Below are positions 1 to 40,746 of a stretch of 64,000 bases of DNA, piece by piece (position 1 is the first letter of the stretch; each line of letters opens with the position of its first letter). The stretch comes from Squalus acanthias (lineage: Eukaryota): contig CM059432.1 in NCBI GenBank assembly GCA_030390025.1, positions 56,918,001 through 56,982,000 on the forward strand, given 5' to 3'. A program made the position numbers and the translations under genes. Under the pieces are notes generated by a model. The model was not told where the DNA came from, did not search any database, and was given only the letters and a program-made list of their open reading frames with translations.

Positions 1-2199
1 ACAGGGAACTATGATGGTATGAGGCGCGAGTTGGCTAGGATGGATTGGGGAGCGTTACTTAAAGGGTTGATGGTGGATAGGCAATGGCAAACATTTAAAG
101 ATCGCATGGATGAACTACAGAATTTGTTCATCCCTGTTTGGCATAAAAATGAAACAAAAAAGCTGACTCGACCGTGGCTAACAAGGGAAATTAGGGATAG
201 CATAAGATCCAAGGAGAGGACATATAAATTGGCCAGAAAAAGCAGCAAACCTGAGGATTGGGAGCAGTTTAGGATTCAGCAAAGGAGGACAAAGGGATTA
301 ATTAAGAGGGGGGAAATAGAATATGAGAGTAAGCTTTCAGGGAACATAAAAACTGACTATAAAAGCTTCTATAGATATGTGTAGAGAAAAAGATTGGTGA
401 AGTCAAGCGTAGGTCCCTTGCAGTCAGAATCAGGGGAATTTATAATGGGGAATAAAGAAATGGCAGGCCAATTAAATACATACTTTGTTGTGTCTTCACA
501 AAGGAGGAGACAAATAACCTCCCAGAGATGTTGGGGAACATAGGGTCTAATGAGAGGGAGGAATTGAATGAAATCAGTATTTGTAGGGAAATGGTGTTAG
601 GGAAATTGACGGGATTGAAGGCCGATAAATCCCCAGGGCTTGATAATCTACATCCTAGGGTACTTAAGGAAGTGGCCCTAGAAATAGTAGATGCATTGCT
701 GGTCATCTTCCAAAGTCTATAGACTCTGGAACAGTTCCCATGGATTGGAGGGTAGCTAATGTAACCCCACTATTCAAAAAAGGTGGTAGAGAGAAAACGG
801 GGAATTATAGCCTGACATCGATAGTGGGGAAAATGCTAGAGTCCATTATAAAAGATGCAATAGCAGAGCACTTGGAAAACAGTGACAGGATCGGACAAAG
901 TCAACATGGATTTACAAAAGGTAAATCATGCTTGACTAATCTACTGGAATTTTTTGAGGATGTAACTGGTAGAATAGGTAAGGGAGAAACAGTGGATGTG
1001 GTGTATTTGGACTTTCAGAAGGCTTTCGATAAGGTCCCGCATAAGAGATTAGCGTGCAAAGTTAAAGCACATGGAATTGGGGGTAAGGTACTGACTTGGA
1101 TAGAGAACTGGTTGGCAGACAGGAAGCAAAGAGTTGGAATAAATGGGTCTTTTTCCGAGTGGCAGGCAGTGACTAGTGGGGTACCGCAGGGATCGGTGCT
1201 AGGGACCCCAGCTATTCACAATATATATTAATGATCTAGACGAGGGAACTAGATGTAATATCTCCAAGTTTGCAGACAACACAAAGCTGGGTGGGCGTGT
1301 GTGCTGAGAGGAGGATGCAGAGAAACTCCAGTATGATTTGGACAGGTTGGGTGATTGGGCAGATGCATGGCAGATGCAGTATAATGTAGATAAATGCGAG
1401 GTTATCCACTTTGGTGGCAAAAACAGGAAGACAGATTATTATCTGAACGGCAATAGATTGGGAAAAGGGGAAGTGCAACGAGACCTGGGTGTCTTGTGCA
1501 CCAGTCGCTGAAGGTAAGTATGCAGGTGCAACAGGCGGTTAAGAAGGCAAATGGTATGTTAGCCTTCATAGCGAGAGGATTCGAGTACAGGAGCAAGGAT
1601 GTCTTGCTGCAGTTGTACAGGGCCTTGGTGAGACCACACCTTGAGTATTGTGTGCAGTTTTGGTCGCCTTATCTGAGAAAGTATATTCTTGCCATGAGGG
1701 AGTGCAGCGAAGATTCACCAGACTGATACCTGGGATGGCAGGAATGACGTATGAAGAGAGATTGGGTCGATTAGGCTTATATTCGCAAGAGTTTAGAAGA
1801 ATGAGAGGGGATCTCATTGAAACTTATAAAATTCTAACAGGACTAGACAGACTAGATGCAGGAAGGATGTTCCTGATGGCGGAGGAGTCCAGAACCAGAG
1901 GTCACAGTCTAAGGATAAGGGGTAAGCCATTTAGGACTGAGATGAGGAGGAATTTCTTCACCCAGAGAGTGGTGAACCTGTGGAATTCTCTACCATAGAA
2001 GGCAGTTGAGGCCTATTCATTAAATATATTCAAGAAGGAGATAGATATATTTCTTAAGGCTAAAGGGATGAAGGGATCTGGGGAGAAAGCAGGGACAGGG
2101 TACTGAATTTGGATGATCAGCCATGATCGCATTGAATGGCGGAGCAGGCTCGAGGGGCCGAATGGCCTACTCCTGCTCCTATCTGCTATGTTTCTATGT
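1..2199 (+). mobile_element. CR1 LINE, 3' part of ORF2 (RT) plus 3' UTR, frameshifted; starts outside the window
   Basis: ORF fragments with CR1 RT motifs ([61 protein letters not shown]); 3' end GGCCGAATGGCC..CTATGTTTCTATGT; closely similar to 36248-38541. Confidence 0.95.
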
Positions 2200-4363
2200 A
2201 AACCAGGTTAATAAATTGGAGAAAAGCTGCTTTTGAGGGGTTGAGCATAGAACTTGGGGAAAATAAAATGGGCAACAATATTGGCAAACAACGATGTAGA
2301 ACAGCAATGGGAAACATTTAAAACGGTGTTCAACAGAGTGCAGGAACCATATATTCCGCTAAAAGGAAAGAACAAACTAAACACTAATGAGACTCCATTG
2401 ATGAATAAAGCCATAAGGGAACAATTGAGGGTAAGGAAAAAGGCATACATTAAGTACATAGACAGCAGGGGAGTGCATGATAAGGGAGCATATGAAGAGA
2501 TTAGGAGAGAAGTCAAAAAAAACAATTAGGAAGGCAAAGAGGAACTATGAAATTAAATTATCAAGGAACGTAAAACAAAATAGTGAAATTTTTTACAGGC
2601 ACATCAATAAAAAAGGAAGGTTGGGATGGGAATAGGGCCATTAAGGGGTAGACAGGATAATACCACAGGCAACAATAGAGATATGGCAGAAATATTAAAT
2701 GTTATTTTGCGTCAGTATTTACCAGGGAGATAGAACAGGTGAACATGACATTGGATGATGAGATAAGTGCATTTAAAATAAGAAAAGGGAATATATCAAA
2801 TAAACTAATCAAACTCAAAGAGGATAAAACCCTTGGTCTGGATGGATTGCATCCACGCATTTTAAAAGAATCTAGGAAAAAGATAGCAGAGGCATTACTG
2901 CACATATTTAATAATTCGTTAGAAAAAGGTGTAGTGCCAGGAGACTGGCGGAGAGTTAACGTAATACCTATATTCAAGAAGGGGGATAGAACATGTCCAG
3001 GGAATTATAGACCAGTCAGCTTAACATCGGTTGTTGGAAAAATATTGGAACCCCTACTAAAGGAGAAAATAGAACAACATCTAGAAACCAAAAATATAAT
3101 AATGAATAGTCAGCATGAATTTCAAAAGGGAAAGTCTTGCTTGACCAACCTCATTGAATTTTTTTGAAGAGGTAACAGAGAGAGTAGACAATGGTAATGC
3201 AGTAGATGTAATTTATCTATATTTTCAAAAGGCCTTTGATAAGGTACCCCATAATAGACTGATGAACAAGGTCAGAGAATACGGAGTCAGGGGGCAAGTA
3301 GCAGAATGGATAGTTAGCTGGCTTCAAGACAGAAAGCAGAGAGTAGGGGTAAAGGGTAGCTATTCAGAGTAGCAGAAGGTGGGTAGTGGTGACCACTGTT
3401 GTTCACAATTTACAACGATTTAGACTTTGGAATCAAAAACACAATTTCTAAATTTGTGGATGACATCAAATTGCCGGGGGGGATAGTCAATACTGAGGAG
3501 GACTGCAACAAATTACAGGAGGACATTAATAAACTTGCAGAATGGGCATATAATTGGCAAATGAAGTTCAACACAGATAAATGTGAGGCATTAGATTTTG
3601 GTCGGAAGAATAGGGAGGTCACTTATTACTTGGAGGGTGCGAGTCTAGGTGGGGTCGAGGGACAAAGGGATCTCGGAGTGCAAATACACAAATCACTAAA
3701 AGTTGTGACACAGGTTAGCAAGGCCATAAAAAAAGCAAACCAAGCACTAGGGTTTATTTCTAGCGGGATAGAATTGAAAAGTAGGGAAGTTATGTTAAAC
3801 CTGTATCGAACCTTGGTTAGACCACACTTAGAGTACTGCGTGCAGTTCTGGACGCCATATTATAGGAGGGAGGTGGAGGCACTGGAGAGGGTGCAGCGAA
3901 GATTTACAAGGATGATACCAGAAATGCAAGGATATACATATTAGGAAAGGATGAACAGACTGGGTCTCTTTTCTCTTGAAAAAAGAAGGCTGAGGGGTGA
4001 CCGAATAGAGATCTTTAAAATTATGAAAGGGTTTGATAGAGTGGATACAGAGAGAATGTTTCCACTTGTGGGGAAGAGCATATCTAGAGGCCATCAATAT
4101 AAGATAGTCACCAAGAAATCCAATAGGGAATTGAGAAGAAACTTCTTTACCCAAAGAGTGGTGAGAATGTGGAACTCGCTACCACAGGGAGTGGTTGAAG
4201 CGAACAGTATAGATGCATTTAAGGGGAGGCTACACAAGCATATGAGGGAGAAAGGAATAGAGGGTTATGCTGATAGATTTAGATGAGGAAAGACGGGAGC
4301 AGAAACGCCGGCATGGACTGGTTGGGCCGAATGGCCTGTTTCTGTGCCGTATATCCTATGTAA
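2200..4363 (+). mobile_element. CR1 LINE of a second subfamily, decayed ORF2 plus 3' tail
   Basis: ORFs 2739-3167, 3154-3372, 3399-3944 and 3951-4286 carry RT motifs ([28 protein letters not shown]); tail GGCCGAATGGCC..ATCCTATGTAAT. Confidence 0.93.
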
Positions 4364-4610
4364 TGGATGTCTCTTTTTGGTTCATTTGTTTAGAATTCTG
4401 ACCCATGTTTTTGTGCCAGTGATGGGACACTTCATACATGCAAATCCTCATGCACGTGATTTTATTTATCGCTATCTTGACCCTGGTTAAATTCAGAGTT
4501 CAACTAATATAGTGCCAAAGCAAAATGCTGCAGATGCTGGAAATCTGAAATACAAACATAAAGTGGATAATACTCAGCAGGTCAGGCAGCATCTGTGGAG
4601 AGAGAAACAG

Positions 4611-4647
4611 AATTAACGTTTCAGGTCGATGACCTTTCATCAGAACT
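4611..4647 (-). ncRNA. minimal hammerhead ribozyme motif (PLE family A), intact core
   Basis: Minus strand AGUU-CUGAUGA-A-AGGUC-AUC-GACCU-GAAA-CGUU-AAUU. Confidence 0.75.
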
Positions 4648-4900
4648 GGAAAAAGTTAGAGGTGTAACGGGTTTTAAGCAAGTACAGGGGCAGGGAAAGG
4701 GAGGTGCGGGGGATGAAAGAACAAAAGGGAAGGTCTGTGATAGGGTGGAAGACAGGAGGGATTAAATGACAAATGACCTTAATCTCTCCTGCTTTCCACG
4801 CTATCACAGACCTTCCTTTTTGTTCTTTCCTCCCCGCACCACCCCCCTTTCCCTGCCTCTGTGCTTGCTTAAAACCCGTTACATCTCTAACTTTTTGCCT

Positions 4901-4935
4901 GTTCTGACAAAAGGTTATCGACCTGAAACGTTAAC
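4901..4935 (+). ncRNA. minimal hammerhead motif with mutated core (CUGACAA)
   Basis: GUU-CUGACAA-A-AGGUU-AUC-GACCU-GAAA-CGUU-AAC; G8 lost, consistent with CpG decay. Confidence 0.6.
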
Positions 4936-5199
4936 TTTCTTTCTCTCTCCACAGATGCTGCCTGACCTACTGAGTATTTCCAGCATTTTCTGTTTTTATT
5001 TAGTATTATAGTGCTGTGGAGAAACGGTAACGTGCGCCTGAAATTTCTCCAAGCTGTTTTTGTTACACTTTTAACTCCTTCAGAACTACAAGAGCATTAT
5101 TGTACCAAATGTGAAGAAAAATTCCTAGATTGAGGTAGAAATGCTGAATGCCGACATCAGCACTCCTCTTCAATGTGGATTTAAGATGAAATGATTGGG

Positions 5200-7451: not shown

Positions 7452-7615
7452 TGATGCAGAGATGCCGGTGTTGGACTGGGGTGGACAAAAATGAGAAGTC
7501 GCACAACACCAGGTTATAGTCCAACAGATTTATTTAAAATTACTTTTAATTAATTAAAATTAATTTTAAATAAATCTGTTGGACTATAACCTGGTGTTGT
7601 GCGACTTCTCATTTT
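7452..7615. mobile_element. Penelope-like family B miniature: near-perfect 130-bp palindrome of the pLTR end
   Basis: Arms 7487-7542 and 7561-7616 are exact reverse complements and the centre is also palindromic; 12-bp TSD TGGTATTAACTA at 7440-7451 and 7616-7627; matches 14125-14160 and 51875-51955. Confidence 0.9.
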
Positions 7616-8569
7616 TGGTATTAACTACACATGCATATCCAATTCCAAGCATGGTGCTGATGCCAGCAAATTGCATGTAACCTAACTAGACTTTCACCAT
7701 TGTGCTTTCCCATGATAAAGTATTACAGGAAGTTCCACTTGGAAGTTTTTCCTGTACAGGAGATGATCTGTGGATTATTTTTTCTATTTTAAAATTGCTT
7801 TACATGCATAAATTGAAAACAAACTCATTTAAGGTAGGAGGAGGTAAGATGGAGAGCAATTGCAGCAAGTACCAAATTGTCACAGGAGATGCTTACGGTA
7901 GGCATCTTCATGTCTCCAGCTACACCCATTATGTCCAATTTCATGTTCCCAATGTTCTTTATGTCCAGCCTCATCATCTGGTGTATTTTTTTTCTACAAC
8001 GAAAACAATGGGGAAAACTATTGTATTTCAATAGGTGATCAGATCAGAGGTAGGTCCCAAGCATGCTTAGGATTATAATTCCAAAGTGGTTTCACTATGG
8101 GGCCTACAAGGGAACACATTTGTTCTGTGATATGTAACGCGACGTTCCTCAGGCCTTAAAAGAGTTAACATAATCCAAAAGTTTGAAGACATATCATGGT
8201 TGCTAGTATTGCAGATTCTCATGTAAAAAGATTGATTTCTTCAGAAATGCTATTAATAGAAATGCATTCCACATTTTTCATTAATCATTATTTGTTCTAT
8301 ACAGTATTTCTTTTCATAATTTTCTGCTGGAAATGTGCTTTTATTTGCAGCCAATTGTCTCACCTAAGTCACTTCTCAAATGATTTGGAGGAATAATTAT
8401 CACCAGGTCCAGTGCTGTGGTACTTGAGCTATCAGTACATCTACAGTTGTCATTTTAGTTACATAATTAGATGTAACTAGCTAAGACTGACTAGCTGATC
8501 ACCATGCGATTAAATGGAGGAAGTAGCAGCAAGTTGACACTAACTCTGGCTCATTTGGTTGCTTAACTA

Positions 8570-9370
8570 GGTTAGTACCTCATTCTTAGATATGCCTAGT
8601 GTTGCTCCTCGCATGCCCTTCTATACTCCTTGTGGAACAAGGGTTGGTCTCCTGTCTTGATGGTGATCAAACAGTGACAGATGTGCTATCTATGCAGTTA
8701 CAGATTATGGTGGTATACAATTCTGTTACTGATAATGGCCTATAGTACCAGATGGATAGTTAGGCTCCTAGATCTGTTCTTAGTCTGTCCCATTTAGCAT
8801 GGTGGTAGAGCTACGTTGCACAATGGAGGATGCCTTCATGGTGGAGACAAGAATTTGTCTTCACGGGGCCTATGCAGTGGTCACTTCTATCAATGTTATC
8901 ATGGTCAGATGCGTCTGCAACAGTTAGGTTGCTGAGGACGAAATCAAATGGGTTACTTCCTCAAGTTGACTCCCTCAGCAGCTGATGTTGGCCCAATCTG
9001 GCAGCTATGCCCTTTACAATTCGGCCAGCTCAGTCAGTGGTGGCATTATAGAGCCGCTCTTGGTGGTAGACGTTGAAGTTATCCACCCAGATTACATTCT
9101 GCGTGCTTGCTTCCCTCAGAACTTTCTCTAAGTGATATTAAGCATGGAGAAACACTGATTTGTCAGTTGAGGGGCAAGGTACGGGGTGATCAGCAGGAGG
9201 TTTCTTTCACCTTGTCTGACCTTGAAACCATGAGACTTCAAAGTCCATAGACAATGCTGAGGACTCGCAAGTCCTCTATCACTGTGCCCCCATCTAGGTG
9301 GGTCTGTTCAGCTAGTGGGACAGGATATACCGAGAATGGTGATGGAGCAGTCTGGGATGTTGGCTGATTG
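8570..9370 (-). mobile_element. older diverged fragment (EN region) of the tRNA-headed LINE family
   Basis: Reverse complement aligns by eye with 9960-10760, e.g. GGGACAGGATATACC..ATGGTGATGGAG and CAGCAGGAGGTTTC. Confidence 0.8.
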
Positions 9371-9446: not shown

Positions 9447-9535
9447 GGGAACAGTAGCATAGTGGTTATGTTACTGGGCTAGTAATCCAGAAGCCTGGAC
9501 TAATGATCCAGAGACGTGAGTTCAAATCCCACCAT
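9447..9535 (+). promoter_or_regulatory. tRNA-derived Pol III type-2 internal promoter at the LINE 5' end
   Basis: A box TAGCATAGTGG 9455-9465; B box GAGTTCAAATCC 9518-9529; duplicated anticodon-arm-like segment between them (CTGGGCTAGTAATCCAG / CTGGACTAATGATCCAG). Confidence 0.8.
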
Positions 9536-12500
9536 GGCAGCTGGGGAATTTAAATTCAGTTAATTAAATAAATCTGGAATAAAAAGCTGGTATCAGTAAT
9601 GGTGACCATGAAACTGTTGGATTGTCATAAAAAACCCATCTGGTTTGCTAATGCCCTTTAGGGAAGGAAATCCGCCATCCTTACCTGGTCTGGCCTATTT
9701 GATTCTTAACTGCCCTCCGAAATGGCCTAGCAAGCCACTCAGTTGTAACAAACCGCTACGAGAAACAATAATAAGAATAAAACCGGACGGACCACCCAGC
9801 ATCAACCTAGTCACCGGCTTCGGACAAGACACACCCAGCCCAGTCGACCCTGCAAAGTCCTCCTCACTAACATCTGGGGATTGTGCCAAAATTGGGAGAG
9901 TTGTCCCACAGACTAGTCAAGTAACAGCCTGACATAGTCATACTCACAGAATCATACCCTTCAGCCAATGTCCCAGACTCCTTCATCACCATCCCTGGAT
10001 AAGTCCTGTCCCACCAGCAGGACAGACCCACCAGAAGTGGCAGCACAGTGGCATACAGTCGGGGGGAAGTGGCCCTGGGAGTCATCAACATTGACTCCGG
10101 ACGCCATGAAGTCTCATGGCTTCAGGTCAAGCATGGGCAAGGAAACGTCCTGCTGATTACCACCTACAACCCTCCCTCAGCTGATGAATCAGTACTCCTC
10201 CATGCTGAACACCACTTGGAAGAAGCACTGAGGGTAGCAAGGGCACAGAATGTACTCTGGGTGGGGGACTTCAATGTCCATCACCAAGAGTGGCTTGGTA
10301 GCACCACTACTGACCGAGCTGGCCGAGTCCTGAAGGACATAGCTGCCAGACTGGGCCTACGACACGAGGGAAAAACCTACTTGACCTCGTCCTCACCAAT
10401 TTACCTGTCGCAGATGCATCTGTCAATACAGCATTGGTAGCAGTGACCACCGCACAGTCCTTGTGAAGACCAAGTCCCATCTTCACACTGAGGACATGCT
10501 CCATTGTGTTGTGTGGCACTATCACCGTGCTAAATGGGGTAGATTCAGAACAGATCTCGCAGCTTAAAACTGGGCATCCATGAGGCGCTATGGGCCATCA
10601 GCAGCAGCAGAATTGTATTCCACCACAATCTGTAACCTCATGGCCCGGCATATCCCTCACTCTGCCATTACCATCAAGCCAGGGGACCAACCCTGGTTCA
10701 ATGAGGAGTACAGAAGAGGATGCCAGGAGCAGCACCAGACGTACCTAAAATGAGGTGCCAACCTGGGGAAGCTGCAACACAGCACTACATGCACGCTAAA
10801 CAGTGGAAGCAGCATGCTATAGACAGAGCTAAGCGATCCCACAATCAACGGATCAGACCAAAGCTCTGCAGTCCTGCCATATCCAGTCGTGAATAGTGGT
10901 GGAGAATTAAGCAGCTAACGGGAGGAGGAGGTTCCATGAAAATTCCCATCCTCAATAATGGCGGGGCCCAGCACGTGAGTGCAAAACACAAGGCTGAAGC
11001 GTTTGCAACCACCTTCAGTCAGAAGTGCCGAGTGGATGAGTGGAGGTTCTCCTGAGATCCCCACCATCACAAAAGCCAGTCTTCAGCAAATTCGATTCAC
11101 TTCACGTGATATCAAGAAACAGCTGAGTGCACTGGATACAGCAAAGGCCAGGTGTCGTGCTGAATACTTGTGCTCCAGAACTAGTCGCGCCTCTAGCCAA
11201 GCTGTTCAGTCTAGCTACAACACTGGCATCTACCCGACAATGTGGAAAACTGCCCAGGTATGTCCTGTCCACAAAAAGGAGGACAAATCCAATCTGGCCA
11301 ATTACCGCCCATTGGTCTACTCTCAATCATCACCAAAGTGATGGATGGTATCATCGACAGTGCTATCAAGCGGCACTTACTCACCAATAATCTGCTCACC
11401 GATGCTCAGTTTGGGTTCCGCCAGGACCACACGGCTCCAGACCCCATTACAGCCTTGGTCCAGACCTCATTATAGCCTTGGTCCAAACATGGACAAAAGA
11501 GCTGAATTCCAGAGGTGAGGTGAGAGTGACTGCCCTTGACATCAAAGCAGCATTTAACCGAGTGTGGCATCAAGGAGCTCTAGTAAAATTGAAGTCAATA
11601 GAAATCAGGGGAAAACTCTCCACTGGCTGGAGTCATACCTAGCACAAAGGAAGATGGTTGCGGTTGTTGGAGGTCAATCATCTCAGCCCCAGGACATCAC
11701 TGCAGGAGTTCCTCAGGGCAGTGTCCTAGGCACAACAATCTGCAGCTGCTTCATCAATGGTCTTCCCTCCATCATATGGTCAGAAGTGGGGATGTTCGCT
11801 GATGATTGCAGAGTGTTCAATTCTATTCGCAACTCCTCAGAAAATGAAGCAGTCCATTCCCGCATGCAGCAAGATCTGGGCGACATTTAGGCTTTATTCG
11901 TGCCACACAAGTGCCAGGCAATATCTATCTCCAACAAGCGAGTGTCTAATCACCTCCCCTTGACATTCAACGGCATTACCATCGCCGAATCCCCCATCAT
12001 CAACATCCTGGGGGTCACCATTGACCAGAAACATAACTGGACCAGCCACATAAATACTGTGGCAACAAGAGCCGGTCAGAGGCTGGGTATTCTGCGGCGA
12101 GTGACTCACCACCTGACTCCCCAAAGCCTTTCCACCATCTACAAGGCACAAGTCAGGAGTGTGATGGAATACTCCCCACTTGCCTGGATGAGTGCAGCTC
12201 CAACAACACGCAAGAAGCTCGATACCATCCAACACAAAGCAGCCCGCTTGATTGGCACCCCATCCACCACCTTAAGCATTCACTATCTCCACCACCGGCG
12301 CACCGTGGCTGCAGTATGTACCATCTGCAAGATGCACTGCAGCAACTTGCCAAGGCTTCTTCGGCAGCACCTCCCAAACCCGTGACCTCTACCACCTAGA
12401 AGGACAAGGGCAGCAGGCGCATGGGAAGACAATCACCTGCAAGTGCCCCTCCAAGTCACACACCATCCTAACTTAGAAATGTATCGACGTTCCTTCATCG

Positions 12501-12680
12501 TCACCGGGTCAAAATCCTGGAACTCCCTCTCTAACAGCACTGTGGGAGTACCTTCACCACAAGGACTGCAGCGGTTCAAGAAGGCAGCTCACGACCGCCT
12601 TCTCGAGGGCAATTAGGAATGTGCAATAAATGCTGGCCTTGCCAGCGATGCCCACAACCTGGAGAAATTTAAAAAAATAA
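9447..12680 (+). mobile_element. near full-length CR1-group (Zenon-like) LINE with a tRNA-like 5' head and a single decayed EN+RT ORF
   Basis: APE start KVLLTNIWG..PDIVILTESYL from 9854; [56 protein letters not shown]; tail ..AATAAATGCTGGCCTTGCCAGCGATGCCCACA plus A-rich end. Confidence 0.9.
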
Positions 12681-13663
12681 TTAAATGTAGGTATTTCCTA
12701 TAATTTCATATGTAAGTTGAATTGTTGAAACGTTAAGTAAAAATTAAGCAGTATGCCACGATTGAGTCTTCCTCCACCACCTTTTTCTAAATATTTCGGT
12801 CATCTAAACTCCACTACCTTTTTGTAGGCTTGGTTTCTTTTTGCCTTCATCTTTTGAGGCCTGTTTATTTACTCGCTGTTTTTCTAACGGTCTGGTCTGT
12901 ATTGCAGAGGAAGCTTTCCCCTCCACTGTTGTACTGATACATCAGTAAAAAGGTTCCAGCCATAAAATGTATTAATTAATGAGCATAGTTAGAATCATAG
13001 AATGGTGACAGCACAGAATAGGCCATTCGGCCCGTCGAGCCTGTGCCGGCTCTCTGCAAGAGCACTTCAGCAAGTCCCACTCACTCGCCCTTTCCCTGTT
13101 GCCTTTTTTTTCCTTCATGTACTTATCCAATTCTCTTTTGAAAGCCACGATTGAGTCTGCCTCCACCACCCTTTCAGGCAGTGCATTCCAGATCCTAACC
13201 ACTCGCTGCGTAAAAAAGTTTTTCCTCATGTCGCCTTTGGTTCTTTTGCCAATCACCTTAAATCTGTGCCCTCTTGTTCTCGACCCTTTCGCCAATGGGA
13301 ACAGTTTCTCTCTATCTACTCTGTCTGGACCCCTCATGATTTTGAACACCTCTATCGGATCTCCTCTCAACCTTCTCTGCTCCATGGAGAACAACCCCAG
13401 CTTCTCTAGTCTATCCACGTAACTGAAGTCCCTCATCCCTGGAACCATTCTAGTAAATCTTTTCTGCACCCTCTCTAAGGCCTTCACATCCTTCCTAAAG
13501 TGCGGTGCCCAGAATTGGACACAATACTCCAGTTGAGGCCAAATCAGTGTTTTATAAAGGTGGTTCATAACTTTCCGGCATGGACTCGATGGGCCAAATG
13601 GCCTCCTTCTGTGCCGTTATGACTCGATGACTCCTTGCTTTTGTACTCTATGCCTCTATTTAT

Positions 13664-28650: not shown

Positions 28651-31324
28651 TTTTTATTTGTCCTTGGGATGCGTGTGTTGCTGGCAAGGCCAGCATTTAT
28701 TGCCCATCCTTAATTGCCCTTGAGAGGGTGGTGGTGAGCTGCCTTCTTTAACCGCTGCAGTCTGTGTGGTGAAGGTACTCCCACAGTGCTGTTAGGGAGG
28801 GAATTCCAGGATTTTAACCCAGCAATGATGAAGGAATAGCGATATATTTCCAAGTCAGGATGGTGTGCAACTTGGAGGGGCACTTGCAGGTGATGGTGTT
28901 CCCATGCACCTGCTGCCCTTGTCCTTCTAGGTGGTAGAGGTTGCGGGTTTGGGAGGTGCTGTCGAAGAAGCCTTGACGAGTTGCTGGAGTGCATCTTGTA
29001 GATGGTACACACTGCAGCCACGGTGCGCCGGTGGTGGAGGGAGTGAATGTTTAAGGTGGTGGATGGGGTGCCAATCAAGCGAGCTGCTTTGTCCTGGATG
29101 GTGTCGAGCTTCTTGAGTGCTGTTGGAGCTGCACTCATCCAGGCAAGTGGAGAGTATTCCATCACACTCCTGACTTGTGCCGTGTAGATGATGGAAAGGC
29201 TTTGGAGAGTCAGGAGGTGAGACACTCACTGCAGAATACCCAGCATCTGACCCGCTCTTGTGGCCACATTATTTATGTGGCTGCTCCAGTTATGTTTCTG
29301 GTCAATGGTGACCCCCAGGATGTTGATGTTGGGGTTCAGTGATGGTAATGCCGTTGAATGTCAAGGGGCGGTGGTTAGTCTCTCGCTTTTTGGAGATAGT
29401 CATTGCCTGGCACTTGTGTGGCGCAAATGTTACTTGCCACTTATCAGCCCAAGCCTGAATGTCGTCCAGGTCAGGCTGCATGCGGGCATGGACTGCTTCA
29501 TTTACTGACGATTTGCGAATGGAACTGAACACTCTGCAATCATCAACGAACATCCCCCCTTCTGACCTTATGATGGAGGGAAGGTCATTGATGAAACAGC
29601 TAAAGATGGTTGGGCCTAGGATACTGCCCTAAGGAACTCCTGCAGCGATGTCCTGAGGCTGAGATGATTGACCTCGAACAACCACAACCATCTTCCTTTG
29701 TGCTAGGCATGACTCCAGCCAGTGGAGAGTTCCCCACCCCCCCCCCCCCCCCCCCCCCGATTCCCATTGACTTCAGTTCTACTAGGGCTCCTTGATGCCA
29801 TACTTGGTCAAATGCTGCCTTGATGTCAAGGGCAGTCACTCTTACCTCACCTCTGGAATTCAGCTCTTTTGTCCATGTTTGGACCAAGGCTGTAATGCGG
29901 TGTGGAGCCGAGCGGTCCTGGTGGAACCCAAACTGAGAATCAGTGAGCAGGTTATTGGTGAGTTAGTGCTGTTTGATAGCACTGTCGACGACACCTTCCA
30001 TCATTTTGCTGATGATTGAGAGTAGACTGATGGGGCAGTAATTGGCCGGATTGGATTTGTCCTGCTTTTTGTGGACAGGACATACCTGGGCAGTTTTCCA
30101 CATTGTCAGGTGGATGCCAGTGTTATAGCTGTACTGGAACAGCTTGGTTAGAGGCGCGGCTAGTTCTGGAACACAAATCTTCAGCACGACAGCTGGGATG
30201 TTGTCAGGGCCCATAGCCTTTGATGTATCCAGTGCGGTCAGTCGTTTCTTGCTATCACATGAAGAAAATCAAGTTGGCTAAAGACTGGCTTCTGTGATGG
30301 TGAGGACCTCGGGAGGAGGCCGATATGGATCATCCACTAGGCACTTCTGGCTGAAGAAGGTTGTAAACGCTTCAACCTTGTCATTTGCACTAACGTACTG
30401 GGCTCCGCGATCATTGAGGATGGGGATGTTCATGCAGCCGCCTCCTCCCATTAGTTGTTTAATTGTTCACCACCATTCATGACTGGATATGGCAGGATTA
30501 CAGAGCTTTGATCTGGTCCGTTGATTATGGGATCGCTTTGCTCTGTCTATAGCATGCTGCTTCTGCTGTTTAGCATGCATGTAGTCTTGTGTTGCAGCTT
30601 CCCAGGTTGGCACCTCATTTTTAGGTATGTCTGATGCTGCTGCTGGCATGCTCTTCTGCACTCCTCATTGAACCAGGGTTGGTCCCCTGGCTTGATGGTA
30701 ATGGTAGAGTGAGGGATATGCCTGGCCAAGAGGTTGCAGATTGTGGTGGCCCACAGCGGCTCATGGATGCCCAGTTTTGAACTGCTAGATCTGTTCTGAA
30801 TCTAACCCAATTAGCACGATGGTAGTGCCACACAACACGATGGAGGGTGTCCTCAGTGTGAAGATGGGATTTCGTCTCCACAAGGACTGTGCGGTGGTCA
30901 CTGCTACCAATGCTGTCATGGACAGATGCATCTGCGACAGGTAGATTGGTGAGGACGAGGTCAAGTAGGTTTTTCCCCTCGTGTTGGTTCTCTCAACACC
31001 TGCTGCACGCCCAGTCTGGCAGCTATGTCCTTCAGGACTTGGCCAGCTTGGTCAGTAGTGGTGCTACCGAGCCACTCTTGGTGATGGACATTGAAATCCC
31101 CCACCAGAGTGCCCTTGCTACCCTCAGTGCTTCTTCCAAGTGGTGTTCAACATGGAGGAATACTGACTCATCAGCTGAGGGAAGGCGGTAGGTGGTAATC
31201 AGCAGGAGGTTTCCTTGCCCATGCTTGACCTGAAGCCATGAGACTCCCAGGACCACTCCCTCCCGACTGTTCAACAGTGCCACCACCTCTGGTGGGTCTG
31301 TCCTGCTGGTGGGACAGGACATAC
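28651..31324 (-). mobile_element. second copy of the tRNA-headed Zenon-like LINE, 3' part; continues at 40218-40746
   Basis: Minus ORFs with VMEYSPLAW, FVDDC, DIKAAFD, NYCPISLLS; reverse complement of ~10000-12680. Confidence 0.92.
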
Positions 31325-31699
31325 TTTGTGTCTGTCTTTACGGAAGAAGACGCAAAAAAACTTCTTGGAAATAGTGGCGAACCAAGGCTCTTGCGAGAAT
31401 GAGGAACTGAAAGAAATTAGTATTGGTAAAAAAAAGTACTGGAGAAATTAATGGGACTGAAAGCCAATAAATCCCCTGGACCTGATGGCCTACATCCTAG
31501 GGTTTTGAAAGAGGCGGCTATAGAGATAGTGGACGCATTGGTTGTCATTTTCCAAAATTCCATAGATTCAGGAATGGTTTCCCCAGATTGGAAGGTAGCA
31601 AATGTAACCCCACTATTTAAGAAAGGAGGGAGAGAGAAAACGGGGAACTACAGACCAGTTAGCCTGACATCAGTAGTAGGGAAAATGCTAGTATCTAGA
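31325..31699 (+). mobile_element. CR1 LINE 'A', left part; continues at 38879-40217
   Basis: KSPGPDGLHPRVLKE..NYRPVSLTSVVGKML; whole insertion bounded by GACATAC at 31318-31324 and 40218-40224. Confidence 0.88.
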
Positions 31700-31705
31700 C
31701 TCATA

Positions 31706-32546
31706 GGGCTCGAATTTCCAAGCCCCGTGGAGGCGGGTTTGGAAGCGGGAGTGGTGGGAAAATTGCAGATTTGGGGGCACGTACCCATCCCACCCCCAAC
31801 CCATCTCCATGCCAATGTCCCAGTAGACGGGTACCCGACCTGTGCTGGGAGCCGCCTCCCCGAGGCGGGAAGGGGATTAGTGCCAATTAACTGCCTGTTA
31901 ACAGGTAGTTAACAGGCAGTTTTGTGGCTAATCCCTATTTTTAGCCCTGAAGTGTGGGCTGCCCGACGGCTCCAAACCACGCCAAGTTACCGAGGCGGAC
32001 CGTCGGTCTGCAGGGCTTGGAGGGGTCGATATGTCCGGTGTACAGGTGAGTGATGGGTGCATGAGTTCAGAGGTAAGTGTGTTTGGTGTGTGTAAATGGT
32101 TTAATAGTTTTACTTACCTTTACTTTCTCCTCCAGGCTTCCTCCCTTCAGTTCTCGGGAGTCCCTCAGCTCACCGGCACAGAAAGCAGAATGGCCGCTGA
32201 GCTGTCAAAAGCTGTAGCCTCTGCTTTCTGGTCTGGAGAGCTCTCTAACTGAGTCTGAGTAGAAGGACTCAAGTTAGAAGACAGATTGTCAGTGTTTGAC
32301 AGCTTCACAGAGCTGTCAAACGCTGATATTTCATCTGTCAAAAGCTCTTGACAGATGAAATGTCAATCGCTGACGTCACCAGTATCCAGGTGTCCCTTAA
32401 TTGGCTTGCTGAGCCCGCTGGGCGGGCTTAACAAGGTCAATCAAGGGAAAGTAGCGTGGGTTGGCCACAAATCGATGGAGGCGGGACTACAACCCAAAAA
32501 GTGGGAGTCCCGCCTCCATCATGTCCCCATTGACAAAATCGAGCCC
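31706..32546. mobile_element. PIF/Harbinger-type MITE inserted in a CR1 tail
   Basis: TIR GGGCTCGA(A/T)TTT; TSD ATA; left end related to the right end of 59287-60122. Confidence 0.85.
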
Positions 32547-33472
32547 ATAGAGTCATAACGGCACAGAAGGAGGCCATTCGGCCCATCGAGTCCTTGCCAG
32601 CTCTCTGTAGAACAATCCGGTCAGTCCCATTCCCCTGCTCTATCCCCGTAGCCCTGCAAATTTATTTCCCTCAAGTGCCTATCCAGTCTCCCCTTGAAAA
32701 CATTGAGTGTCTCCGCTTCCACCACTTCCGACGGCAGCAAGTTCCAGGTCCTCAGCACTCGCTACATAAAAAAGATTTTCCTCACATACCCCCTGTATCT
32801 CTTGCCCAAAATCTTAAATCTGTGTCCCCTAGTCCTTGTACCATCAACTAGTGTGAACAGCCTTTCCCCGTCTAGCCTATCCAAACCCGTCATAATCTTG
32901 TACACCTCTATCAAATCATCCCTCAACCTCCTTTGCTCTAATGAAAACAAATCCAGCTTCTCCAACCTGTCCTTGTAGCTAAGATCCCCCCATCCCTGGA
33001 ACCATTCCGGCAAATCTCCTCTGCATCCTCTCAAGGGCCTTCACATCCTTCCTAAAGTGTGGTGACCAGAACTGGACGCAATACTCCAGTTCTGGCCTAA
33101 CCAGCGCTTTATAAAGGTTCAGCATAACTTCTCTACTTTTGTACTCAATACCTCTATTTATGAAGCCCAAGATCCCATATGCTTTACTGACCACTCTCTC
33201 AATATGTCCCGACACCTTCAGGGACCTATGCACATTAACTCCCAGGTCCCTCTGTCCCTGCATACTCTTTAAATCTGTGCCATTAAGTGTATATTGCCTC
33301 TCCCTGTTCCTTCTGCCAAAATGCATCACCTCATACTTCTCTCTATTAAATTCCATCTGCCACTTGTCTACCCATTCTGCTAGCCTTTCGATGTCCTGTT
33401 GCAGTCGATTGGTATCATCCTCACTGTTTGCCACACCACCAAGTTTGATGTCATCGACAAATTTCGAAATTC
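32547..33472 (-). mobile_element. CR1 LINE 'B' 3' fragment, same subfamily as 52296-54696; followed by another ~100-bp CR1 piece to 33573
   Basis: ORFs 32762-33034 and 32979-33434 are near-identical to ORF 52381-53184. Confidence 0.92.
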
Positions 33473-33573
33473 TACCTCTGCTTTACATCCACCCTATCAA
33501 ACCTCTGCATAAATTTAAAGATTTCTATCACGTCTCCACAAAGCCCTCTCTTTTCTAGAGAAAAGAGCCCCAG

Positions 33574-36247
33574 CATAAGAACATAAGACCATAAGAAACA
33601 TGAGCAGGAGTAGGCCAATCGGCCCCTCGAGCCTGCTCCGCCATTCAGTAAGATCATGGTGATCCAATCTTGGCCTCAACTCCACTTTCCCGCTCTCTCC
33701 CCATACCCTTGACTCCCTTGTAGTTCAAATGTCTGTCAATCTCCGCCTTGAACATATTCAATGACTCCGCCAACACAGCTCTCCAGGGTAGAGAATTCCA
33801 AAGATTCACGACCCTCTGAGAGAAGAAATTCCTCCTCATCTCCGTCTTAAATGGGCGACCCCTTATTCTGAAACTATGCCCCCTAGTTCTAGATACCCCC
33901 ACTAGGGGAAACATCCTTTCAGCATCCACTCTGTCAATCCCCCTCAGAATCTTATATGTTTCAATAAGATCCCCTCTCATTCTTCTGAACTCCAATGAGT
34001 GTAGGCCCAACCTGCTCGACCTTTCATCATACGTCAACCCCTTCATCCCAGGAATCAACCTAGTGAACCTTCTCTGCACTGCCTCCAATGCAAGTATATT
34101 GTTCCTTAAATATGGAGACCAAAACTGTACACGGTACTCCAGGTGCGGTCTCTCCTGCGCCCTGTAAAGTTGCATCAAAACTTCCCTACTTTTATACTCT
34201 ATCCCCCTTGCAATAAAGGCCAACATTTCATTAGCCTTCCTAATTACTTGCTGTACCTACATGCTAACTTTTTGTGTTTCATGTACGAGGACCCCCAGAT
34301 CCCTTTGTACCGCAGCATTTTGTAGTCTCACTGCATTTAAATAATAATTTGCTTTTTTATTCTTCCAAAGTGGATAACCTCACATTTTCCCACATTATAC
34401 TCCATCTGCCAAATGTTTGCCCACTCACTTAGCCTGTCTATATCCCTTTTGCAGGCTCTTTGTGTCCTCCTCACAACTTGCTTACCCACCTATCTTTGTA
34501 TCATCAGCAAATTTGGCTACAGTACTCTCGGTCCCTTCATCCAAGTCATTAATATAGATTGTAAATAGTTGAGGCCCCAGCAGTGATCCCTGTGGCACCC
34601 CAGTAGTTACTGATTGCCAACCGGAAAATGACCCATTTATCCCGACTCTCTGTTTTCTGTTAGTTAGCCAATCCCCTATCCATGCCAATATATTACCCCC
34701 AACCCTGTGCGCGCTTATCTTGTGCCGTAACCTTTTATGTGGCACCTTATCGAATGCCTTCTAGAAATCCAAATACACTGCATCTACTGCTTCCCCTTTA
34801 TCCACCCTGTTTGTTACATCTTCAAAAAAAGCTCTAGTAAATTTGTCAAACACGATTTCCCTTTCATAAAACCATGTTGACTCTGCTTGATGGTCTTATG
34901 ATTTTCTAAATGTCCTGCTATTACCTCCTTAATAATGGATTCCAGCATTTTCCCAAATACAGATGTTGGGCTAATTGGCCTATAGTTTCCTGCTTTCTGT
35001 CTTCCTCCTTTCTTGAATAGTGGCGTTACATTTGCGGTTTTTCAATCCGCTGGGACCTCTCCAGAATCCAGGGAATTTTGGTAGATTACAACCAACGCAT
35101 CTACTATCTCTGCAGCCACTTCTTTTAAGACCCTAGGATGCAGGCCATCAGGTCCAGGGGACTTGTCGGCCTTTAGCCCTATTAGTTTGCCTAGTACTTT
35201 TTCTCTAGTGATAGAGATTGTTTTAAGTTCCTCCCTCCCTATAGCCCCTTGATTATCTATTATTATTGGGATGTTTTTAGTGTCTTCTACTGTGAAGACC
35301 GATCCAAAATAATTGTCTCTGCCATTTCTCTATTTCCCATTATTAATTCCCCAGTCTCATCCTCTAAGGGATCAACGTTTACTTTAGCTACTCTCTTCCT
35401 TTTTATATACCTGTAGAAGCTCTTACTGTCTGTTTTTATATTATTTGCTAGTTTACTCTCATACTCTATCTTCTCCCTCTTTATAATTTTTTTAGTCATC
35501 CTTTGCTGGTTTTTAAAAATTTCCCAATCCTCTGGCCTACCACTAATCTTCGCAACATTGTATGCCTTTTCTTTCAATTTGATACCATCCTTCACTTCCT
35601 GAGTTAGCCACGGATGGTGCATCCTTCTCATAGAGCCTTTCTTTCTCACTGGAATATACCTTTGCTGAGATTTATGAAATATCTCCTTAAATTTCTGCCA
35701 CTGCTGATCTACCGTCTTACCCTTTAATCTATTTTCCCAGTCCACTTTAGCCAACTCTGTCCTCATACCCTTGTAATTGCCTTTATTTAAGTTTAGGACA
35801 CCAGTTTCAGACCCAAGTTTCTCACCCTCAAACTGAATTTGAAATTCTATCATGCTATGACCACTCTTTCCGAGGGGATCCTTTACTATGAGATCATTAA
35901 TTAATCCTGTCTCATTACACAGTACCAGATCTAAAATAGCCTGCTCCCTGGTTGGTTCCTCAACGTATTGCTTGAAAAAACCACCCCAAATACACTCTAT
36001 GAACTCGTCCTCAAGGTTACCCTTGCCAATTTGATTTGTCCAATCTATATGATGATTAAAATCACCCATGATTATTGCAGTACCTTTCTTACAAGCCCCC
36101 ATTATTTCTTGATTTATAATCTGTCCTACAGTATAGCTACTGTTAGGGGGCCTATCTGCTACTCCCACCAGTGACTTCTTACCCTTACTATTTCTTATCT
36201 CTACCCAAACTGATTCTACATCTTGATCTTCTGAGCCAATATCATTC
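33574..36247 (-). mobile_element. CR1 LINE 'C' (EN through RT plus tail); 5' part continues at 38542-38878
   Basis: IIMGDFN and EEPTREQAILDLV (APE); RT ORFs 33654-34226 and 34482-34745; tail CATAAGAACATAAGA. Confidence 0.93.
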
Positions 36248-38541
36248 CTTGGGTCGGAGCGATCATAATATGATAGAATTCTTCATTAAGATTGAGAGTG
36301 AAGTGGTTGACTCAGAGACTAGGGTCCTGAATTTAAATAAAGGAAACTACGATGGTATGAGGTGCGAGTTGGGTAGGATTGATTGGGGAATGTCACTCAA
36401 AGGGTTGACAGTGGATAAGCAATGGCAAACATTCATGGACGAACTACAGAATTTGTTCATCCCAGTTTGGCATAAGAATAAAACAAAAAGGGTGACTCAA
36501 CCATGGCTAACAAGGAAAATTAGGGATAGCATAAGATCCAAGGAGCGGGCATATAAATTGGCCAGAAAAAGCAGTAACCCTGTGGATTGGGAGCAGTTTA
36601 AGATTCAACAAAGGAGGACAAAGGGATTAATTAAGAAGGGGAAAATAGAATACGAGAGTAAGCTTGCAGGGAACATAAAAACTGACTGTAAAAGCTTTTA
36701 TAGATATGTGAAGAGAAAAAGATTAGTGAAATCAAGCATAGGTCCCTTGCAGTCAGAATCAGGGGAACTTATAATGGGGAACAAAGAAATGTCAGGCCAA
36801 TTAAATACATATTTTGGTTCTGTCTTCACAAAGGAGGACACAAATAACCTCCCAGAGATGTTGGGGAACATAGGGTCTGATGAAAGGGGGGAACTGAAAG
36901 AAATCAGTATTTGTAGGGAAATGGTGTTGGGGAAATTGAGGGGATTGAAGGCCGATAAATCCCCAGGGCCTGATAATCTACATCCTAGGGTACTTAAGGA
37001 AGTGGCCCTAGAAATAGTAGATGCATTGCTGATCATCTTCCAACATTCGATGGAATCTGGAACAGTACCCATGGATTGGAGGGTAGCTAATGTTACCCCA
37101 CTATTCAAAAAGGGTGGTAGAGAGAAAACGGGGAATTACAACCAGTAAGCCTGACATCGGTAGTGGGGAAAATGCTAGAGTCCATTATAAAAGATGTAAT
37201 AGCTGAGCACTTGAAAAACAGTGACAGGATCGGACAAAGTCAACATGGATTTACAAAAGGTAAATCATGCTTGACTAATCTACTGGAATTTTTTGAGGAT
37301 GTAACTGGTAAAATAGTTAAGGGAGAACCAGTGGATGTGGTGTATTTGGACTTCCAAAAGGCTTTTGATAAGGTCCCGCATAAGAGACTAGTGTGTAAAG
37401 TTAAGGCACATGGGATTGGGGGCAAGGTATTGACTTGGATAGAGAACTGGTTGGCAGACAGAAAGCAAAGAGTTGCAATAAACGGGTCTTTTTCCGAGTG
37501 GCAGGCAGTGACTTGTGGGGTACCGCAGGGATCGGTCCTTGGACCCCAGCTATTCACAATATATATTAATGATCCAGACAAGGGAACTAGATGTAATATC
37601 TCCAAGTTTGCAGACGACACAAAACTGGGTGGGCGTGTGTGCTGCGAGGAGGATGCCGAGAAACTGCAGGATGATTTGGACAGGTTGGGTGATTGGGCAG
37701 AAGTGTGGCAGATGCAATATAACGTGGATAAATGCGAGGTTATCCACTTTGGTGTCAAAAACAGAAAGGCAGATTATTATCTGAATGGCAATAGATTGGG
37801 AGAAGGGGAAGTGCAACGAGACCTGGGTGTCCTTGTGCACCAGTCGCTGAAGGTAAGCATGCAGGTGCAGCAGGCGGTTAAGAAGGCAAATGGTATGTTG
37901 GCCTTCATAGCGAGAGGGTTCGAGTACAGGAACAAGGATGTCTTGCTGCAGTTGTACAGGGCCTTGGTGAGACCACACCTTGAGTACTGTGTGCAGCTTT
38001 GGTCGCCTTATCTGAAGAAGGATGTTCTTGCCATGGAAGGAGTTCAGCGAAGATTCACAAGGCTGATACCTGGGATGGCAGGAATGACGTATGAAGAGAG
38101 ATTGGGTCGATTGGGCTTATACTCGCTGGAGTTTAGAAGAATGAGAGGGGATCTCATTGAAACTTATAAAATTCTGACAGGACAGGACAAACTAGATGCA
38201 GGAAAGATGTTCCCGATGGTTGGGGAGTCCAGAACCAAGGGTCACAGTCTAAGGATAAGGGGTAAGCCATTTAGGATAGAAATGAGGAGGAATTTCTTCA
38301 CCCAGAGAGTGGTGAACCTGTGGAATTCTCTGCCACAGAAGGCAGTAGAGGCCAATTCATTAAATAGATTCAAGAAGGAGTTGGATATATTTCTTAAGGC
38401 TAAAGGGATCAAGGGATATGGGGAGAAAGCAGGGACAGGGTACTGAATTTGGATGATCAGCCATGATCGCATTGAATGGCGGAGCAGGCTAGAGGGGCCG
38501 AATGGCCTACTCCTGCTCCTATCTTCTATGATTCTATGATT
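36248..38541 (+). mobile_element. young CR1 LINE 'D', 5'-truncated, nested in CR1 'C'
   Basis: Starts at LGRSDHN (end of APE); two long ORFs split by one frameshift near 37140; tail TTCTATGATTCTATGATT. Confidence 0.95.
37163..38446 (+). pseudogene. uninterrupted 427-codon CR1 reverse-transcriptase and C-terminal frame (fragment of ORF2)
   Basis: [43 protein letters not shown] motifs; the element lacks ORF1 and most of APE. Confidence 0.9.
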
Positions 38542-38878
38542 CTCACCACTGCAGTAATCCCATCCTTTATTAACAGAGTTACCCCACCTCCTTTTCCTTT
38601 CTGCCTATCCTTCTGAAATGTCAAATATCCCTGAATATTCAGTTACCAGCCTTGGTCACTTTGCAACCACGTCTCTGTAATGGCTACCAGATCATACTCA
38701 TTTATTTCTATTTGTGCCATCAACTCATCTATCTTGTTACGAATGCTGCGTGCATTCAGATAAAGAGCCTTTAATTTTATCTGATCATTTTTCCTTACTC
38801 TGACTCTATTTTCTGGTTCACTCTTATGCTTGTACGCTCTTCCCCTTCCTGATACATTCTGGTTATCGTTACCCCTGT
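38542..38878 (-). mobile_element. 5' continuation of CR1 'C'
   Basis: Minus strand carries the APE N-terminus (NARSIRNKIDEL..VAITETWL) and rejoins 36247. Confidence 0.8.
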
Positions 38879-40217
38879 CTATTATTAAGGTTGTGGTAAC
38901 AGGGCACTTGGAAAAAAAATAATAGGATTGGGCAGAATCAACACGGATTTATGAAAGGGAAATCGTGTTTGACAAATCTGTTTTTTGAGGTTGTAACTAG
39001 CAGAATAGATAAGGGGGAACCACTGGATGTGGTGTATTTGGGTTTTCGGAAGGCTTTCGATAAGGTGCCACACAAGAGGTTATTAAACAAAATTAGGGCT
39101 CAAGGGATGGGGGGAATATACTAGCATGGATTGAGGATTGGTTAACGGACAGAAAACAGGGAGTAGGAATAAACGAGTCATTTTCGGGTTGGCAGGCTGT
39201 AACTAGTGGGGTACCGCAAGGATCAGTGCTTGGGCCTCAGCTATTCACAATCTATATCAATGATTTGGATGAGGGGACCAAATGTAATATATCCAAGTTT
39301 GCTGATGATACAAAGCTGGGTGGGAATGTAAGTTGTGAGGAGGATGCAAGGAGGCTTCAAGGGGATATAGACAAGCTAATGAGTGGGAAAGAACATGGCA
39401 AATGGAATATAATGTGGAGAAATGTGAAGTTATCCACTTTGGTAGGAAAATTAGAAAAGCAGAGTATTTTTTAAATGATGAAAGGTTGGAAAATGTTGGT
39501 GTTCACAGGGACCTGGATGTCCTTGTACACAAATCACTGAAATTAAACATGCAGGTACAGCAAGCAATTAGGAAAGCAAATGGTATGTTGGCCTTTATTA
39601 CAAGAGGATTTGAGTATAAAAGTAAAGACATCTGACTGCAATGATATAGGGCACTGGTGAGACCACACCTGGAGTATTGTGTACAGTTTGGTCTCCTTAC
39701 CTCAGGAAGGATATAGTTACCTTAGAGGGAGTGCAACGAAGGTTCACCAGACTGGTTCCTGGGATGGAGGGGGATTGTCCTAGGAGGACAGATTGAGTAG
39801 ACTAGGCCTATATACTGTAGAGTTTAGAAGAATGAGAGGTGATCTCATTGAAACATACAAAATTCTTACAGGGCTTGACAGGGTAGATGCAGGGAGGATG
39901 TTTCCCCTGGCTGGGGAGTCTAGAACCAGGGGTCACAGTCTCAGAATAAGGGGTCGGCCATTTAGGACTGAGATGAGGAGACATTTCTTCACTCAGAGGG
40001 TGGTGAATCTTTGGAATTCTCTACCCCAGAGGGCTGTGGAGGCTCAGTCGTTGAGTATATTCAAGACAGAGATCGATAGATTTTTGAATATTGAGGGAAT
40101 CAAGGGATATGGGGATAGTGCAGGAAAGTTCAGATGAGGTAGAAGATCTTGTTGAATGGTGGAGCAGGCTCGAAGATCCAATTTTCCTACTCCTGCTCCT
40201 ATTTCTTATGTTCTTAT
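38879..40217 (+). mobile_element. CR1 LINE 'A', right part
   Basis: Resumes TCTATTATTAAGG where 31699 breaks off; RT motifs; tail TTCTTATGTTCTTATG. Confidence 0.9.
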
Positions 40218-40746
40218 GACATACCCAGGGATGGTGATGGAGGAGTCTGGGACATTGGCTGAAAGGTATGATTCTGTGAGTATGACTGTGTCAGGCTGTT
40301 GCTTGACTAGTCTGTGGGACAGCTCTCCCAATTTTGGCACAAGTCCCCAGATGTTAGTGAGGAGGACTTTGCAGGATCGACTGGGCTGGGTGTGCTGTTG
40401 TTATGTCCGAAGCCGAGGTCGATGCCAGGGTGGTCCGTCCGATTTTATTCTTCTTATTGCTTTTCGTAGCGGTTTGTGACAACTGAGTGGCTTGCTAGGC
40501 CATTTCAGACGGCAGTTAAGAGTCAACCACATTGCTGTGGGTCTGTGGTCACATATAGGCCAGACCAGGTAAGGACGGCAGATTTTCTTCCCTAAAGGAC
40601 ATTAATGAACCAGATGGATTTTTACGACATTCTGATAGTTTCATGGTCACCATTATTGATACTAGCTTTTTAATACAGAAGTGAATTTAAATTCCCCAGC
40701 TGCCGTGGTGGGATTTAAACTCACGTCTCTGGATCATTAGTCCAGG
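40218..40746 (-). mobile_element. 5' part of the second tRNA-headed LINE copy (EN start, 5' UTR, B box; truncated before the A box)
   Basis: Reverse complement of ~9495-10005; B box GAGTTTAAATCCC near 40710-40722. Confidence 0.9.

Follow-up and report, generated by a model that had tools for sequence, protein, structure and literature searches.

Sharks and rays carry a protein-coding retrotransposon that probably uses a tRNA-derived internal RNA polymerase III (Pol III) promoter as its 5′ end. The case starts from a 64-kb window of Squalus acanthias (the whole stretch of DNA analysed here), in which positions 9447–12680 are a decayed copy of a 3.3-kb Zenon LINE (CR1 group) without ORF1.

The window copy lies on the + strand, as do all of its parts, and opens with a tRNA-like head (9447–9533); the 5′ ends of copies pile up at 9447. 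By sequence, the head holds both boxes of a type-2 Pol III promoter, the A box at 9455–9465 (TAGCATAGTGG) and the B box at 9518/9519–9529. A single degenerate position of the A box varies among subfamilies, and the B box has no variant common to several copies. The Rfam tRNA model matches the window at 9454–9533, scoring 24.1 bits (E 0.015) where Rfam's gathering score is 29, and ARAGORN makes no tRNA call within the 64-kb window; the tRNA likeness of the head is real but degenerate. Next comes the leader or SINE-body region (9534–9748), a body common to the leader and to short SINE forms, with a 28-nt deletion in this copy relative to the family majority sequence. Leader deletions of 20–30 nt recur at majority positions 252–286 (near 9698 in the window) in up to a quarter of copies, the window copy among them. 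A predicted hairpin at 9711–9747 (RNAalifold consensus columns 315–351, 16 copies) ends directly before the ORF. This single APE-endonuclease (EN) plus reverse transcriptase (RT) frame (9749–12616) is broken in the window copy, with EN starting at about 9857, RT at about 11290–12030 and the first in-frame Met at 10580. The triplet at 9777–9779 corresponds to an upstream, out-of-frame AUG from which an overlapping frame of 48 codons opens; it reads ATA in the older subfamily, to which the window copy belongs, and ATG in the younger. The short 3′ UTR (12617–12680) consists of an AATAAA and an A-rich tail common to the SINE forms. With 89.8% identity to the family majority, 14 gaps and many stops and frameshifts, the copy is dead. 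Its sense strand holds no run of four or more T (T4), against 18 such runs of A, nine of C and 11 of G, and the first T4 3′ of it is at 12782. A sequence-only reading of the window had described this arrangement of head, boxes, leader and ORF1-less EN/RT frame, the absence of sense T4 among frequent A-runs and the first T-run in the 3′ flank; annotation and run counts bear it out.

A second copy in the window is split. Its body and tail are at 28665–31324 (−; majority 587–3296) and its 5′ part, with B box, leader and EN start, at 40218–40746 (−; majority 48–593). The two halves overlap by 7 nt at the break and are separated by about 8.9 kb of nested CR1s. The 5′ part had been taken for an independent insertion; it is instead the same insertion as 28665–31324, 5′-truncated past the A box, which is lost. 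Its one T4, previously noted at 30265–30268, is there, and the old internal fragment of a related element at 8561–9367 (−; 74.6% to the majority) lacks T4, as had been said. Used as a query for an older headed or headless subfamily, this fragment matched only the main family. The claim that neighbouring CR1 and L2 copies have many T4 held for the CR1 stretches (five of five, with 3–11 T4 each) and failed for L2, since the 657-nt L2 frame has none; one 834-nt CR1 frame is also T4-free.

Other repeats surround these copies. Within copy 2, at least three stacked CR1 insertions fill 31325–40217 (about 8.9 kb), and 7 nt are duplicated at their outer border. The CR1 copies at 36147–38446 (+) and 3–2198 (+), which are 92% alike and have open frames of 333 and 441 codons, represent a putative young CR1 family. 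Self-complementary stretches at 4548–5001 (85% over 460 nt) and 7486–7617 (98% over 132 nt) are likely MITE-type or fold-back repeats.

The family as such is already known. According to the available parts of PMC13343379, Zenon elements occur in hagfish and coelacanth as well as in five elasmobranchs; all of them lack ORF1 and carry a poly-A tail. The majority sequence that we derived from 19 copies (18 of 20 fetched, two short ones being excluded, plus the window copy) is 3305 nt long and comprises 329 nt of head and leader, a 973-codon stop-to-stop ORF, a short 3′ UTR and an A-tail. Over its first 400 nt, compared by eye, the published SquAca_Zenon-1 (3314 nt) equals it almost letter for letter, and in the lack of ORF1 and the A-tail the elasmobranch Zenon of PMC13343379 is, on the parts available, the same family. 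The features that define Zenon are present: APE endonuclease and RT share one ORF, and the majority 3′ ends carry a poly-A tail rather than a microsatellite, a feature taken from the same partial source. Pfam PF14529 (EN) and PF00078 (RT) were matched on two genomic copies, and the family RT is only 28% identical to that of the window's CR1.

Judged by eye from the first 400 nt in the PMC13343379 supplement, all seven elasmobranch consensuses, from four shark species and one ray (SquAca_Zenon-1 to -3 and the Zenon-1 of CarCar, RhiTyp, ScyCan and HypSab), begin with a tRNA-like head. The A box is found in 7/7 and the B box in 6/7, that of the ray being one base short; the spacer is divergent, and T4 is absent from these 400 nt in 7/7. 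Two hagfish rows and one coelacanth row are headless and contain T4 in their first 400 nt, where the 5′ ends may include flank. The main text of PMC13343379 gives no match for tRNA, Pol III, polymerase, promoter or head, and its preprint none for tRNA, Pol III or promoter. The family is known as elasmobranch Zenon, and the head, the T-cluster avoidance and the missing AUG described below go unremarked in that main text. Our literature searches, with Repbase, Dfam and most subscription papers outside their scope, returned no report of a protein-coding LINE with a tRNA-like head, and the parts searched of PMC4824008, PMC11481361, PMC10468316 and the PMC5804259 supplement contained nothing bearing on the Zenon head.

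Among the metagenome loci the closest relative is L211, at 42% identity; it is an invertebrate-type Zenon that lacks the head, and an in-frame AUG stands where its EN starts. Upstream of this endonuclease, inspection by eye shows a basic open stretch together with an AUG that is out of frame (L211:690–760). A tRNA search in 13 metagenome loci and a search for similarity to the head in 80 both found none, L211 alone having a complete 5′ region, and Rfam gave no match on L211, L214 or L218.

That the head belongs to the element, and is not a chance SINE neighbour, was examined with copies sampled blind to it. Three queries without the head were used, two of which gave 30 of 40 hits as loci and the third 40 of 150; self hits, one duplicate and the falsely chained L169 were removed. 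Of the resulting 97 copies, 62 extend as far as the start of EN and 55 into the leader; the B box is present in 28, and 19 have their 5′ end no more than 9 nt from position 1. Their upstream flanks are unrelated except for four pairwise matches, including a 26-nt one at the junction. A distant invertebrate-type protein query gave 49 near-complete frames; the 40 whose match starts before residue 10 behave alike, with 26 entering the leader, 14 holding the B box and eight starting within 10 nt. No alternative common 5′ end was found among the 97 head-blind and 40 ORF-complete copies. As is usual for LINEs, the majority of copies are 5′-truncated, and the head provides the sole full-length end. 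It belongs integrally to an autonomous LINE and is old; head, leader, EN–RT ORF and A-tail replicate as a unit. On this point the sequence-only reading, which had expected full-length copies to start at the head, was right.

Of the 40 ORF-complete copies, 14 are 5′-truncated within 75 nt of one another (majority 324–397), at the leader/ORF border just 3′ of the predicted hairpin, possibly reflecting a stall in reverse transcription. A structured leader RNA was considered and dropped: the MFE z was −2.3 for one copy but the covariation term was only −0.77 for 16 copies. No clear target-site duplications were seen by eye around family copies.

The majority has a single frame above 120 codons and no ORF1. 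Its first in-frame Met is codon 287, beyond the endonuclease, and the leader, head included, contains eight AUGs, two AATAAA and no T-cluster. The upstream out-of-frame AUG is ATG in 47/111 copies and ATA in 49/111, the AUG group being the younger (3.2% from its own majority, against 4.6% for the ATA group). RTE-1 has a similar short overlapping frame. The AUG also occurs, by eye, in the first 400 nt of 6/7 published elasmobranch consensuses, and as an obligatory start we rejected it, since it is missing from about half of the copies. Read-through of a small in-frame AUG-GCC-stop in the leader was likewise set aside, its frame relative to the ORF being inconstant, by eye, among the consensuses in the parts available.

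The family ORF evolved under purifying selection. Across 204 copies, the dN/dS-like ratio is 0.23 for variants present in at least 8% of copies and 0.72 for rare ones, which shows that the parents of copies were selected for protein. The family is very numerous in genome G000 (3.7 Gb), with 294,343 first-look candidates for a C-terminal piece, a figure that is not a copy number. Contigs C2828 and C2851 of this genome (L291 and L292; about 3 kb) match the majority at 99% identity, the differences being of the indel type; they are very young copies or collapsed assemblies, and this points to recent activity. Four runs presumed to be RNA cover all 30 bins, as contigs that make neither strand nor start visible. 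Pieces 72–79% identical to the family ORF occur in the annotated shark proteins P0003 (Cetorhinus), P0007 (Heterodontus) and P0074 (Heptranchias), probably through repeat read-through in gene models.

Vertebrate Pol III stops at T-runs, and the sequence-only reading had built its argument on the absence of T4. The majority and every subfamily majority are indeed T4-free, as are 10/19 copies; dead copies gain T4 at 0.13 per kb, and the depletion is not shared by the closest headless relative, L211, with seven T4 in 2.8 kb. Against codon-shuffled controls, the comparison that reading had proposed, the direction held and the significance did not: 1.9 T4 are expected under a synonymous shuffle (P 0.11) and 1.1 under a dinucleotide shuffle (P 0.34), whilst a mononucleotide shuffle gives 3.1 (P 0.03) and codons redrawn by third-position composition give 3.6 (P 0.014). 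T4 is also absent from 3/22 T-poor control ORFs of 3.1–3.3 kb. Absence of T4 alone is therefore weak evidence, not significant under two of four nulls. A lineage test of T4-creating changes (0 of 14 transition opportunities) has no power.

Human Pol III also terminates at degenerate T-rich elements, according to the parts of PMC3141230 available, and for this reason we then counted T-clusters, a statistic selected after the T4 result, in shuffles that hold protein and codon usage fixed. Windows with four T in 5 nt number one where 9.6 are expected (P 0.004, 10,000 synonymous shuffles). The same direction is seen for four T in 6 nt (8 against 28.2; 0 of 2000 shuffles), three in 4 (32 against 54; P 0.0005), five in 8 (4 against 14.5; P 0.02) and, short of significance, five in 6 (0 against 1.9; P 0.19). 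By the same shuffles there is no depletion of A-, C- or G-clusters. The leader and 3′ UTR contain no 4-of-5 T cluster, and the natural copies L161 and L291 give the same T-cluster result as the majority.

The comparison set comprised 57 ORFs, namely the longest frame of at least 1500 nt from 52/80 metagenome loci (not individually checked) and five CR1 frames of the window. Relative to these controls, which are distant from the family (protein identity no higher than about 45%) and for the most part come from outside the vertebrates, the observed/expected (O/E) ratio is 0.10 against a minimum of 0.40 and the cluster density 0.34 per kb against a minimum of 2.33. Six controls are significantly but mildly depleted (O/E 0.4–0.8), and headless L211 has an O/E of 0.92. 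Avoidance of T-clusters on the sense strand is T-specific and extreme. As A-runs are normal, we infer that the effect is strand-specific and not an avoidance of self-insertion. Phe content is the lowest of 102 proteins, with a z of −1.1 after composition correction that is not significant.

Together, the integral head and the T-cluster avoidance favour selection for Pol III read-through, as the sequence-only reading had proposed, whereas its T4 argument as stated is statistically weak. None of the outcomes at sequence level that this reading had named as fatal to it was observed. Transcription of the Zenon family by Pol III is, we infer, the probable state of affairs. On this model TFIIIC would bind the A and B boxes of the head, and Pol III would start at the first G, read 3.3 kb and stop at the first flanking T-run. 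The uncapped 3.3-kb RNA must then be exported and translated. Given that there is no in-frame AUG and that the leader has eight AUGs, we propose a non-canonical start, perhaps through IRES-like entry or via the short frame that overlaps the ORF. The protein would bind the 3′ tail and insert the element by target-primed reverse transcription, mostly with 5′ truncation. The short SINEs, sharing both ends with the LINE, would ride on its enzyme. We would put at even chances the fullest version of this model, in which a vertebrate coding element has been transcribed by Pol III since before the shark/ray split, has had its 2.9-kb ORF recoded against terminators, is translated uncapped and without an in-frame AUG, and yields true SINEs by internal deletion, and so would amount to an autonomous SINE.

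Normally LINEs are transcribed by Pol II, and the main alternative, which we regard as unlikely, is that this one is too, from a promoter in the captured head and leader or by read-through from host genes. T-cluster avoidance would then reflect constraints on a Pol II transcript (splice acceptors, U-rich decay signals or U-rich downstream polyadenylation elements), and the boxes would persist via head exchange with Pol III-driven SINEs. Such exchange is conceivable, young SINE and LINE heads being about 90% alike, and some presumed Pol II LINE ORFs show the milder T-cluster depletion. Yet none of the 57 controls comes near an O/E of 0.10, a leader that retains two AATAAA and eight AUGs is poor for a capped, scanned mRNA, and the family starts where a type-2 promoter would start.

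The head might instead be a passive passenger, acquired by nested insertion or template switch, with T-poverty following from a C-rich, T-poor composition; this we consider very improbable. Accidental joins do occur: at L169:400–3709 a truncated Zenon lies within an older SINE at its body/tail border, with the SINE tail 3′ of the LINE A-tail, an arrangement showing that a SINE head can be gained by accident. The ORF is also only 19% T and prefers TTC 15:3. A mere passenger would not explain why the head is kept, with conserved boxes, in the ray and shark consensuses (first 400 nt), nor why depletion persists, for T only, when codon usage and protein are fixed. Scarcely credible is a processing signal, an RNase P-like cut freeing the element from a longer co-transcript much as ribozymes free R2 or RTE, for although the 5′ end is sharp at the start of the tRNA-like unit, there is by eye no acceptor stem (no pairing joins the first 7 nt to the bases that follow the T-arm), ARAGORN finds no tRNA and T-cluster avoidance is not predicted.

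Were Pol III transcription of Zenon to hold, its consequences would be considerable. The divide between LINEs and SINEs rests on Pol II coding elements as against Pol III non-coding parasites, and this distinction would not survive a coding LINE that thrives under Pol III. The element would also be a naturally occurring example, in a vertebrate, of translation from a long Pol III RNA that has no cap, and new SINEs could arise in one step, by deletion within a LINE that carries a head. At 3.3 kb, with one ORF and a promoter of its own, so compact an element would be of interest for retrotransposon delivery tools. Very young copies at 99% to the majority exist, and the Pol III reading is open to standard assays.

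Short forms made of head, leader and tail accompany the LINE, some young (about 90% to the LINE head) and some older (about 80%). Their joints vary, often retaining the opening bases of the ORF along with its final codons, and the tail is the Zenon ORF end plus 3′ UTR; contigs of related organisms contain several such joints. The LINE may have taken up a SINE, or the SINEs may have arisen from the LINE by deletion. Of the features that define a SINE2, the LINE has the tRNA-like head with A and B boxes, whilst shortness and lack of coding capacity are found only in the short forms, the LINE having its 973-codon ORF.

Several known systems invite comparison, each as described in the parts of its source available. 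Persaeus (PMC6740152) is likewise a short element composed of the 5′ and 3′ ends of an insect single-ORF Zenon; it is stated to have neither homology to tRNA nor a Pol III promoter, whereas both the long and short shark forms carry a tRNA-like head. SacSINE1 (PMC5499810) and bipartite SINEs such as Bov-tA (PMC5786205) share with the shark short forms an A/B-box head, a body and a LINE-shared tail. SacSINE1 is, however, described with an L2-type tail (PMC5499810, PMC3747384), the shark short forms having that of Zenon; a Deu-domain/SacSINE1 label was therefore dropped, the described L2-2_CM-type tail setting the two apart by description rather than by sequences. RTE-1_DAn was set aside in its source as an accidental hit, with no Pol III claim in the part available, and Cassandra, unlike the shark LINE, is a non-autonomous LTR element. 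SINEs are unable to encode protein (PMC5786205), and in the tRNA-derived ones a head has been added to pieces of a LINE, whereas in the shark case a full coding LINE carries the head.
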